A stretch of 57,407 bases of DNA, the filler included, from Basidiobolus ranarum (Eukaryota), in assembly GCA_040143965.1 (NCBI GenBank). It is 3 parts of 3 records of this genome, joined end to end, with 100 filler letters (N's around TTAATTAATTAA, not from the genome) between each part and the next. Parts side by side here need not be neighbours in the genome. Positions count along the whole stretch, not along the records: positions 19,203 to 38,271 come from JASJQH010000258.1; 2 more parts are not named here. One strand, written 5' to 3'. Below are positions 25,738 to 28,485 of the stretch, one piece after another. How positions within the stretch are numbered: position 1 is the first letter of the stretch; every line of letters starts with the position of its first letter. The notes beneath the pieces are model-generated. The model was given only the letters and a program-made list of their open reading frames with translations, did no database searches and was not told where the DNA came from. The position numbers were made by a program, and so were the translations under genes.

Positions 25738-28485
25738 TTAGTAGTCAGCATATCGTACTTCTCCATTATCCATCACCCACTCACAATATTTCCTCAAGAA
25801 TTCATCTTTCATACCCACAGTCTCACTATTCCCGATAACACAAAGATGTCGTTTTGGTCTAGTGATGGCGACATTGAGACGACGTGAATCCGAAAGGAAT
25901 CCAACCTCTCCAGAGTCGTTGGATCGAACCATAGAGAAAATCACCGCTTCTTTCTCACGTCCTTGGAAGCCATCCACTATACACAATATGAATAGGTCAG
26001 TATTGAAATGAAAACGAAACCACATTCCAACAACATACCCGAGCCAATCTCCAAGTTCGGATACACTTCTTTCAATGCCAAGGTTAGCATCTTCACTTGT
26101 GCATTATATGGAGTGATTACCGCAATATCCTCTTCACTGACCCCCGCATCCACTAAGTTCTTGACATGCTCGATGACTATAGTGACTTCCCCTTCGTTAT
26201 ACTTACTATCTCCGTCTTTTTCACCGTCACCAGCTTCAGCCAGTTCATTCATACTAGCATGTGCGGTATCGATAAATACCAATGGAGAGATAGTATCATC
26301 TGTCTCTTCGACACCTGTGAGTTGACAGAGCAATCTTTCACGAACCGATTCATGGGCTATGAGCTTGTCCTCGTATAGCTCCATCGATGGATATTTCATG
26401 ATTAGCTCGTGCATTCGATATTGGGTAGTTAACATGGATTTGATTTTGTCTCCGTATATAGCAAGCATACGATCGAACAAAGTAACCTCCAAGCTCTTCC
26501 CAGAAGATGGATCCGAATTTTCCGGTGTGGTGGGGGAGCTATTGCGATTGGACTTGAGTGACTTGATGGTGGGTGGAAGTTGCAAGTGGTCACCTGCCTA
26601 TTCCCAAAGAAAGTCGCATTTAGATAAAAGTCAATAATCGTACCATAGTAAAAATCATCTACCAAAATCACTTTCTTAGCCTTTAAGATAGCGATCCAAC
26701 ATTCCTAGTAGAAAGGGCAAATTGTTAATCCGAGAGGAATGAGGAATGGATGGTGAAAAGAGGTAGCGCTTTGCTTACAGCTAATGGAAGTGATAAGATA
26801 CTTGGGTTAAAAGGTGAGAGTTAGCAGGATACAAAAATGGGGATATTACCTTCTAAGGCCTGGGTTGCTTCGTCAATGATGACTACATCGAACTTTCGGT
26901 TTTTCATGGTTCTACTTCCACACCTACCATCACGATTCCCATATCAGCGAGTGTAGAGCTAGTATAGATAAGATCAAGACATACCCATTTAAAGTGCTCA
27001 ATATAACTGGGGTTTCTTCAAATAATTCTTCAACGACTCTTCCCTCACGTACTCTAAACTCTCTCTTTAAATCTCTGAGCTCCTGATAATAGCCTTTTCT
27101 CTCAGTACGGTTTCTAGACTTTTGGATATTCGCCATAGTCTGATCCATCTCTTTACGTATATCATTCACAAGTTGACCTTGATCACAGGTCTGTGTAACA
27201 ACATCTAGAGCATGCTCCACGACAGCTGGCAAGATACGAGCAGGGTGGCCAACGCGTAGAATATTTAGTCGACATTTGGCCAATCTTTCAACCAAGTTAT
27301 CCACGGAAATATTGGATGGGCCACACACGAGGATTTTCTTCTCTTGCTTTGCCAGTTGTCGAATGATCTCAATCAATGTGTACGTTTTGCCAGTCTAACA
27401 GACGAGGGGAGGGAAGAATATTTAGACCATCAATTCAAAATGTAACTAGTAAACTAAGCCTCACATACTCCTGAATATTAGAAAAGTCAATAACCTATCG
27501 ATTTCCATGTATTCAAGAGAAATCTCTAACCTGGTGGTCCATGAATCAATCCTATCTCATTGGTATTCAATGCGAATTTAACCGCTTGCTTTTGAGAATC
27601 ATTCAAATTCTTATCGAAAAAGGAGATTTTGTTGAATTTGGTAGAGTGTGAGGGTGCTTGGAGATTGAATAAAACTCGAATCAAACTAGACTCTTTCTCC
27701 CGTTTAAGGTCCAACATGGCCCATTTCATTCTAATGGTAAAAGTGATTAAAGCATTCGAAAATATCCGATGAATTGAATTCTATTCACTTGAATGTACCT
27801 TTCATAGCTAATATTATTGGCTAACTTTGTCCTAGAAATTTCCCCATAAAATTAGTTCTCTTGTCTTTCAATGAGGAAGTTATTGCTGTAGTACATTTTA
27901 CATCTATCTTCCCATTCAACTGGTAGCTCTTCTTTCACTGCAACCGTTATCACAGTATCCGTAACCTTTAATACAACTCCATCTACGAACGGAACCGTTT
28001 CATTTGGCTTTAGTGGTGCCCCTACGGTGGCGCTTGGATTGGCACTGACAGTTTTGGAAACTGCAAGAGAAGTACCGGTGGGAGTATTCACTGACACTCG
28101 AAGATCTTCCGTGATTGCTATGATATCCCCCGAACGAATACGATGTGGTAAAAAGGTTGAAAGGTGAAGAGGTGGTTCAAAGTCAACAACACTTATCAAG
28201 AGAAGAAGTAAGGAAAAAGATTTGAAGTCAGTCGACCAGTTGAAAAGTATCCACCATATTCACAACCAGTTAAAGCGCCAAATGGTTACTCTAAGCTTTG
28301 AATAGAATATACCTTTTTCCACCTAAACCAGTTCTAAGTGCTGTGATACGTAAGCCACCTAATGCAAGACCACGTCGCTGTAACTGTTGTACCGATCTTT
28401 GTCCAAGTAGTTCGGAATTTTCGTCAATCTCTAGTTGCCTTTCCTTTTCAAGTAAGGCTAATTGATTTTCTACAAACGTTTCCAT
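25738..28485 (-). CDS. HCS1: SF1 Upf1-like helicase, IGHMBP2/SMUBP-2/Hcs1 type (676 aa); 11 exons: 28485-28313, 28191-27895, 27831-27799, 27730-27531, 27470-27469, 27394-26985, 26923-26850, 26780-26779, 26704-26663, 26597-26039, 25976-25738
   Basis: [82 protein letters not shown] and RRLNVAITR. Exon lengths sum to 2031 nt and all phases agree. No C-terminal R3H or AN1 domain. Confidence 0.92.

Follow-up and report, generated by a model that had tools for sequence, protein, structure and literature searches.

The window analysed here is a 57,407-nt stretch of DNA from Basidiobolus ranarum (GenBank assembly GCA_040143965.1), an early-diverging fungus (Zoopagomycota). Its minus strand carries a helicase gene in which the coding sequence appears to pass, at each of two ATPase motifs, through an exon of only two nucleotides, CT in one case and GA in the other. 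Our own model of this gene, built from the coordinates, has 11 exons totalling 2031 nt and reads through 676 codons with no stop. All 10 introns are of the GT..AG type. The frame is open only if both 2-nt exons are kept.

The larger exons matched the Pfam families AAA_11 (4.8e-24) and AAA_12 (1.1e-31 and 3.1e-23), with a weak match to SMUBP-2_HCS1_1B. Homologs of the helicase carry the names DNA polymerase alpha-associated DNA helicase A or SMUBP-2, and Walker A, motif II (DExxQ) and motif III (GDxxQLPP) are all present, in order, in the model. The solved SMUBP-2 chains 4b3f and 4b3g gave a weak local match (E = 0.13) in which motif II is aligned and the chains read ...FDVVVIDECAQALEAS. From its domains and the names of its homologs, the gene is predicted to encode an HCS1/SMUBP-2-type (IGHMBP2; Upf1-like) superfamily 1 (SF1) helicase of Basidiobolus.

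An earlier note on this DNA had described the CT site. The bases and coordinates it gave, the introns of 69 and 74 nt, the phases (1 and 0) and the GCTAAC and ATTAAC motifs are all exact on the minus strand. Exon 7 ends ...GAC GAA GCA ACC CAG GCC TTA GAA G at 26850. The acceptor TTAG of the following intron is succeeded by CT and then by a strong donor, GTAAGC, which together form an internal site between the 69-nt and 74-nt introns. The note had further claimed two 2-nt exons of identical architecture in the two ATPase motifs of the gene, and this holds: GA, flanked by introns of 60 and 74 nt, has the same layout, a phase-1 intron, two nucleotides and a phase-0 intron. Its statement that skipping either or both shifts the frame is likewise borne out, with a stop after residue 405 when CT is skipped and after residue 242 when GA or both are skipped. 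The donors of the four flanking introns are GTAATA, GTAAGC, GTTAGA and GTATGT, and each intron has a yTrAy-like branch motif 20-40 nt before its acceptor. These introns are 60, 74, 69 and 74 nt long; five of the gene's other six measure 61-68 nt, and intron 1 measures 121 nt. Both sites show the features by which ultra-short exons are recognised, namely complete canonical flanking introns together with a frame and a conserved protein that need the exon. Introns 4 (27471-27530) and 9 (26598-26662), both on the minus strand, have in common a TTATTGACTTTT stretch at the likely branch site (local alignment z = 4.7), which may reflect a branch-site preference of the genome.

Features of the helicase gene. 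Positions count along the whole window; related loci are the 49 loci described in the text.
Feature	Position	Strand	Evidence
Helicase gene, HCS1/SMUBP-2-type SF1 (predicted)	25738..28485	-	model, Pfam, homolog names
Exon 4, ends ...CAT GGA CCA CCA G, phase 1	27531..27730	-	sequence, model
Intron 4, 60 nt, GTTAGA...ATTCAG; extra intron beside a widely shared one; absent from 49/49 related loci	27471..27530	-	
Putative 2-nt exon GA; G+GA = GGA = Gly before TGKT, Walker A	27469..27470	-	model, shuffles, profile scores
Intron 5, 74 nt, GTATGT...TGTTAG, phase 0 between GPPG and TGKT	27395..27468	-	model, 49-locus comparison
Exon 6, 410 nt, between both micro-exon sites	26985..27394	-	
Exon 7, 74 nt, Walker B / motif II, ends in phase 1 with G	26850..26923	-	sequence, model
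Intron 7, 69 nt, GTAATA...CATTAG; branch-like GCTAAC (26825-26820) and TTTTAAC (26812-26806)	26781..26849	-	
U12-type donor core GTATCCT, in frame with exon 7; donor of the rival single intron	26826..26832	-	
Probable 2-nt exon CT; preceding G+CT = GCT = Ala	26779..26780	-	sequence, model, homologs, shuffles, profile
Intron 8, 74 nt, GTAAGC...CTACTAG; branch-like ATTAAC (26729-26724), 20 nt from acceptor	26705..26778	-	
Exon 9, 42 nt, phase 0, starts GAA TGT TGG, ECW...VIL, leads into motif III	26663..26704	-	

The protein read through CT agrees with the helicase family. It had been proposed that G and CT join to give Ala at the spacing seen in IGHMBP2, and at this place the SMUBP-2 chains 4b3f/4b3g read ...IDECAQALEAS, in confirmation of the IGHMBP2 motif given in the note. 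When homologs of the large C-terminal exon were compared, 115 of the best 120 had the 19 residues that separate DExxQ from GDxxQL in the model; four had 21, one had 20 and none had 18. The residue at the CT position was Ala in 115 of the 117 motif-bearing homologs, with V and P once each. The distance from DExxQ to GDxxQL is thus fixed, and no residue is more frequent than Ala at the CT position. Upstream in exon 7, the distance from LNG to FDVV agrees with homologs P0361 and P0362. A one-base shift to a non-canonical GG donor was considered and rejected, as it yields the spacing of 18 that occurs in 0/120 homologs.

To compare the model with simpler splicing patterns, a profile of 62 full-length homologs was used to score it together with 54 single-intron alternatives, comprising every in-frame open single intron with GT-AG, GC-AG or AT-AC ends. 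The micro-exon model obtained 921.3 bits, the top score of the 55 models, and the best alternative 909.9 bits. An acceptor that restores the frame without the internal sites had been named as grounds for refuting the CT exon. Such solutions exist among the 54, including one with a GTATCCT donor that the earlier note overlooked, but all of them score lower. One GC-AG intron, giving DEATQ/ECW (the slash marks the junction), reached 900.6 bits and was rejected for its poor donor and its deletion of conserved residues. At Walker A, none of the alternatives retains the P-loop (879.3 bits for the highest-scoring one), and there is therefore no way out for GA if the gene is functional.

To assess how often such internal sites occur by chance, both inter-exon gaps were randomised with dinucleotides preserved (20,000 shuffles per gap). 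A YAG-NN-GT site that left both sub-introns at least 45 nt long appeared in 2.2% of shuffles of the CT gap and 6.3% of those of the GA gap. Requiring a GTA[AT]G[CT] donor as well reduced these values to 0.02% and 0.04%, and requiring in addition the first letter for the conserved residue gave 0.015% and 0.005%, respectively. The micro-exon arrangement exceeds chance. When 10 introns were placed randomly in 2030 nt, two pairs no more than 2 nt apart were obtained in 0.29% of trials, indicating that the pairing of introns in this gene is not random. These results suggest that the helicase gene is functional and has a genuine 2-nt exon in CT (26780-26779), which we consider likely, and we infer that CT is included in the mRNA. 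GA, at 27470-27469, would be a second 2-nt exon, presumably included in the same way.

Public gene models treat this region as fragments. The B. ranarum annotation holds only a 222-aa C-terminal piece of the helicase, which starts at an internal Met and agrees, by eye, with the C-terminal 222 residues of our model (100% identity in the protein search). In B. meristosporus there are pieces of 222 aa (80% identical) and 79 aa (ending at the exon-6 donor and sharing 86% identity with the second half of that exon), and these two models have consecutive accessions on one contig. The public models in both Basidiobolus species stop short of both micro-exon sites. Stumps of this kind are expected of automatic predictors when exon phases cannot be joined. 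Predictors failed on either side of exon 6 in both species, a pattern that fits conserved micro-exons without proving them. Genes of early-diverging fungi are probably being missed by annotation pipelines for the same reason.

The fragmentary annotation, along with four 44-base N runs elsewhere in the window, could also be read as the mark of a decaying pseudogene or of assembly errors, with the micro-exons as accidents of a broken frame. We find this hardly credible. The 676 codons contain no stop, all helicase motifs are intact, and the two Basidiobolus species are 80-86% identical at the protein level. Both frame problems are exactly solved by canonical signals that the shuffles almost never yield, and the solutions encode conserved residues.

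Several observations weigh against the interpretation of CT and GA as exons. The residue at the CT position varies more widely among 149 cluster representatives, where the 93 that carry the motif have A in 49, P in 25, V in 11 and other residues in 8. Conservation of the micro-exons within Basidiobolus, if it holds, rests only on broken gene models, and no transcript-derived full-length protein of the helicase was present among the homologs found by protein searches. Across the whole window, the pattern YAG-N2-GTAWGY occurs 6 times where 3.1 +/- 1.8 are expected, and is thus not enriched. The last of these points is the GTATCCT word within intron 7, which permits a different splice.

Introns of the minor spliceosome (U12-type) have the donor consensus RTATCCTT and a TCCTTRAY branch site near the acceptor. 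GTATCCT at 26832-26826 is the 7-base core of that donor, followed by G rather than T, and is reached from exon 7 in frame and without a stop. A single 128-nt U12 intron from 26832 to the acceptor before 26704 would lengthen exon 7 by 17 nt and put GNIPIF in place of the Ala; its product is open and is the alternative that scored 909.9 bits. B. meristosporus is described as having 249 minor introns and, at 0.554%, a higher density of them than any other fungus (PMC10639083). Nevertheless, such an intron is very unlikely here. A regex scan found no TCCTTRAY-type branch site downstream of 26832, and the best candidate, GGATTAAC, lies 20 nt upstream of the acceptor. The window contains 25 copies of RTATCCT where 18.3 +/- 4.3 would be expected, showing that single chance matches are common. 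Only one residue stands at the CT place in 117/117 motif-bearing homologs. The same was seen in 34 of 49 related loci, where the motif is uninterrupted in one frame, the other 15 being unread there; these loci, fungal and other, came from one metagenome scan with exon 6, include none from Basidiobolus and have 33-65% protein identity, the closest 54-65%. The U12 product falls 11.4 bits below the micro-exon model in the profile and leaves the internal AG-CT-GTAAGC site as a coincidence (0.015% by chance), and at Walker A, the sister site, no comparable escape exists. No convincing U12 intron was found elsewhere in the window as a branch-site reference. The GTATCCT in intron 7 may have arisen by chance, act as a minor alternative donor or be a relic.

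If CT and GA are exons, each would be constitutive and would have on either side an ordinary short U2-type intron that is recognised by intron definition. Joining of G and CT would restore the frame and supply the conserved Ala after motif II, and joining of G and GA would supply the Gly of Walker A. Splicing straight across either micro-exon would shift the frame and bring an early stop. We infer that the two introns around a micro-exon are removed consecutively, as two spliceosomes cannot sit 2 nt apart. The bases before the downstream donors (GCT and GGA) are unchanged by removal of the upstream intron, and either order of removal would work because these exon-side triplets are identical before and after it.

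The early stops also allow for regulation, which had been suggested for this gene in the form of a splicing-sensitive control. The micro-exons could be real but only partly included, with skipped, early-stop transcripts setting helicase output by splicing efficiency, possibly with nonsense-mediated decay (NMD). Direct GT..AG splicing across the gaps (136 and 145 nt) would use canonical outer sites, the resulting stops after residues 242 and 405 lie upstream of later introns, and a gene would rarely acquire two such sites by chance, as the 0.29% in random placement indicates. Against this, RNA folding around the two sites gave no structure that stands out (z = 0.32 and -0.23), the clustering is equally explained by the way the introns arose, and the precedents in plants and Fusarium are described in their sources as correctly or constitutively spliced (PMC12940212, PMC4674806). 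We regard partial inclusion as quite improbable.

Recurrent intron gain or sliding had been offered as the origin of the two exons, and intron positions in orthologs as a means of examining it. In 19 of the 49 related loci, Walker A is split by a single phase-0 intron of ~35-130 nt at exactly GPPG/TGKT, the position of intron 5 in the window. Since this position is common to 19/49 loci, intron 5 is old. No related locus has intron 4, whose 60 nt lie at a CAG/G site 2 nt upstream of intron 5, and intron 4 appears to be a later gain. The old intron has not moved at Walker A; sliding is therefore unsupported there, and gain beside an existing intron is favoured instead. Thus the part of the proposal that concerns gain is borne out to a degree, by the extra intron 4 beside the shared intron 5 and by the pairing found in 0.29% of random placements, and the part that concerns sliding fails at Walker A. 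A micro-exon would then be the remnant between two introns that have come to lie 2 nt apart, and at Walker A the remnant would date from the gain of a new intron at an AG/G site 2 nt upstream of an old conserved one.

At motif II, no intron was found in the related loci that contain the region, in which 72-93 nt separate DExxQ from GDxxQL within a single frame. A rough tblastn map of the 49 loci showed breaks near window introns 2, 3 and 5 and none at 6, 7, 8 or 9. Introns 6, 7, 8 and 9 (26598-26984, minus strand), absent from 49/49 loci by the rough map, fall in a coding stretch of 118 nt around motif II and appear to be a local cluster of lineage-specific introns.

An origin of the paired introns by duplication was considered and rejected, as the introns of each pair are unlike each other (local alignment z = 1.13 and 0.81). 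We also compared the flanking introns with the window by blastn-short. Outside an intron's own place, the matches listed reached 17 nt at most (E = 0.035), the most significant being one of 15 nt (E = 0.003), and they included no copies of the four flanking introns elsewhere in the 57-kb window. Given that the paired introns are unlike and that these matches include no copies, recent duplication or a repeated element is unsupported. Walker A is also altered in a 718-aa homolog from outside the window, P0010, which has ~31 odd residues between GPPGTG and GKTYT; this insert resembles an intron that was left unspliced in frame, at a different point of the motif.

A broader reading is that new introns in Basidiobolus arise preferentially at AG/ sites 2 nt upstream of existing donors and so repeatedly create obligatory 2-nt exons that need ordered consecutive splicing, that many broken models hide such exons, and that skipping acts as an NMD-linked throttle. 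We consider this speculative and on balance unlikely. The earlier note had raised the matter of a lineage-wide feature, which was not shown here, with no further convincing case in the 57-kb window. A scan of the window for tandem short introns with open flanks of at least 40 codons on each side returned 17 rows, of which only GA was convincing on inspection; the scan is blind to short neighbouring exons and misses CT itself.

Other features of the window were recorded. The neighbour of the helicase gene, at 29172-31519 and upstream on the minus strand, matches Integrator complex subunit 3 (Ints3_N, 3.7e-18; weak HEAT_Ints3_C). Integrator is unusual in fungi. At 7004-8482 (minus strand) there is an intronless major facilitator superfamily (MFS) transporter open reading frame (ORF) with 86% identity to a B. 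ranarum protein and 83% to one of B. meristosporus, the next matches being far lower. Its homologs at 56-68% identity in bdelloid rotifers (Adineta, Rotaria, Didymodactylos), found among Mucorales matches, look like a fungus-rotifer gene transfer. An ORF at 34755-35264 (plus strand) matches the copia-type reverse transcriptase family RVT_2 (2e-25), and another at 37687-38172 (minus strand), with no Pfam match, resembles by eye the C-terminal part of a copia-type polyprotein; both are predicted to be retroelement remains between genes. The ORF at 42549-43451 (plus strand) has a CBM_5_12 chitin-binding module (1.7e-08) and a weak AA9-like match, and may encode a lytic polysaccharide monooxygenase-like secreted protein. 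The N runs, 44 bases each, are at 19103-19146, 19159-19202, 38272-38315 and 38328-38371, in two pairs 12 bases apart; they represent masked sequence or gaps, and none is near the micro-exons.

Among the closest known systems are the CYP621A P450 genes of Fusarium, with a 1-nt exon that was confirmed with SRA reads and presented as the first known from a fungus (Nelson and Syed 2026, PMC12940212). In that account, as here, a fungal nuclear gene has an ultra-short exon inside a conserved motif, with a phase-1 boundary beside an otherwise unjoinable exon, and the exon was detected by phase mismatch and homolog spacing after being overlooked by automatic annotation. The Fusarium exon differs in being 1 nt long (AG-G-GT), present once per gene, found in Ascomycota and read-confirmed, whereas the exons proposed here are 2 nt long, occur twice in one gene of an early-diverging fungus and are deduced from DNA.

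Ultra-short exons are also described in plants, with 1-nt exons in APC11 and VPS55 and many micro-exons of 1-15 nt (PMC4674806, PMC8831610). The exon of Arabidopsis APC11 is RNA-verified and accompanied by a model of one-after-another splicing (PMC4674806), and the plant helicase gene RECQ3 has two micro-exons, of 4 and 8 nt, at distant places (PMC8831610). In these accounts, as would hold for CT and GA, the ultra-short coding exons are constitutive, have normal flanking introns and are usually unannotated, and stepwise removal is proposed. The plant examples differ in having longer introns and in being conserved over hundreds of millions of years, and none of the plant cases drawn from these two papers is of 2 nt (PMC4674806, PMC8831610). 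None of the papers listed by a phrase search for 2-nt exons deals with a natural spliceosomal one.

The arrangement at Walker A also recalls the [D] stwintrons of fungi, described as nested U2 introns in which a new one lies at the donor of an older one and removal is consecutive (PMC5639578, PMC7138796). The likeness lies in a second U2 intron at or beside an older donor, in two consecutive standard reactions and in an older position that is common to distant fungi. In a [D] stwintron, however, the inner intron interrupts the donor and leaves nothing in the mRNA, whereas here the new intron would lie 2 nt upstream and 2 nt would stay. Under the preferential-gain reading given above, Basidiobolus would have a near-miss variant of the process behind [D] stwintrons. 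A [D] stwintron at the CT site itself was rejected, as a transcript in which 26850 is joined directly to 26704 is out of frame and stops after residue 405. Zero-nucleotide ratchet points of Drosophila are similar in that an adjoining acceptor and donor are used successively inside a longer stretch (bioRxiv 10.1101/006163). As described there, ratchet points divide very long introns without contributing any exon bases; at the present sites 2 nt would be kept between short fungal sub-introns.

Intron 7 has one resemblance to the U12-type introns of Basidiobolus (PMC10639083), a GTATCCT core in frame in a minor-intron-rich genus. It differs from them in having no U12-type branch site, and the U12 product misfits the family alignment; we rate GTATCCT as a chance word or minor alternative.

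Taken together, the micro-exons are probably a real case of already known ultra-short exons. Their unusual traits are that there are two in one gene, that both are inside catalytic motifs and that the origin of one of them can be read. If confirmed by RNA, CT and GA would be among the shortest exons documented in fungi and apparently the first pair of such exons known from a single gene, each of them in a catalytic motif. The Walker A site, with an old shared intron and a seemingly younger one 2 nt upstream, would offer a clean example of micro-exon birth and bears on the question of where new spliceosomal introns come from.

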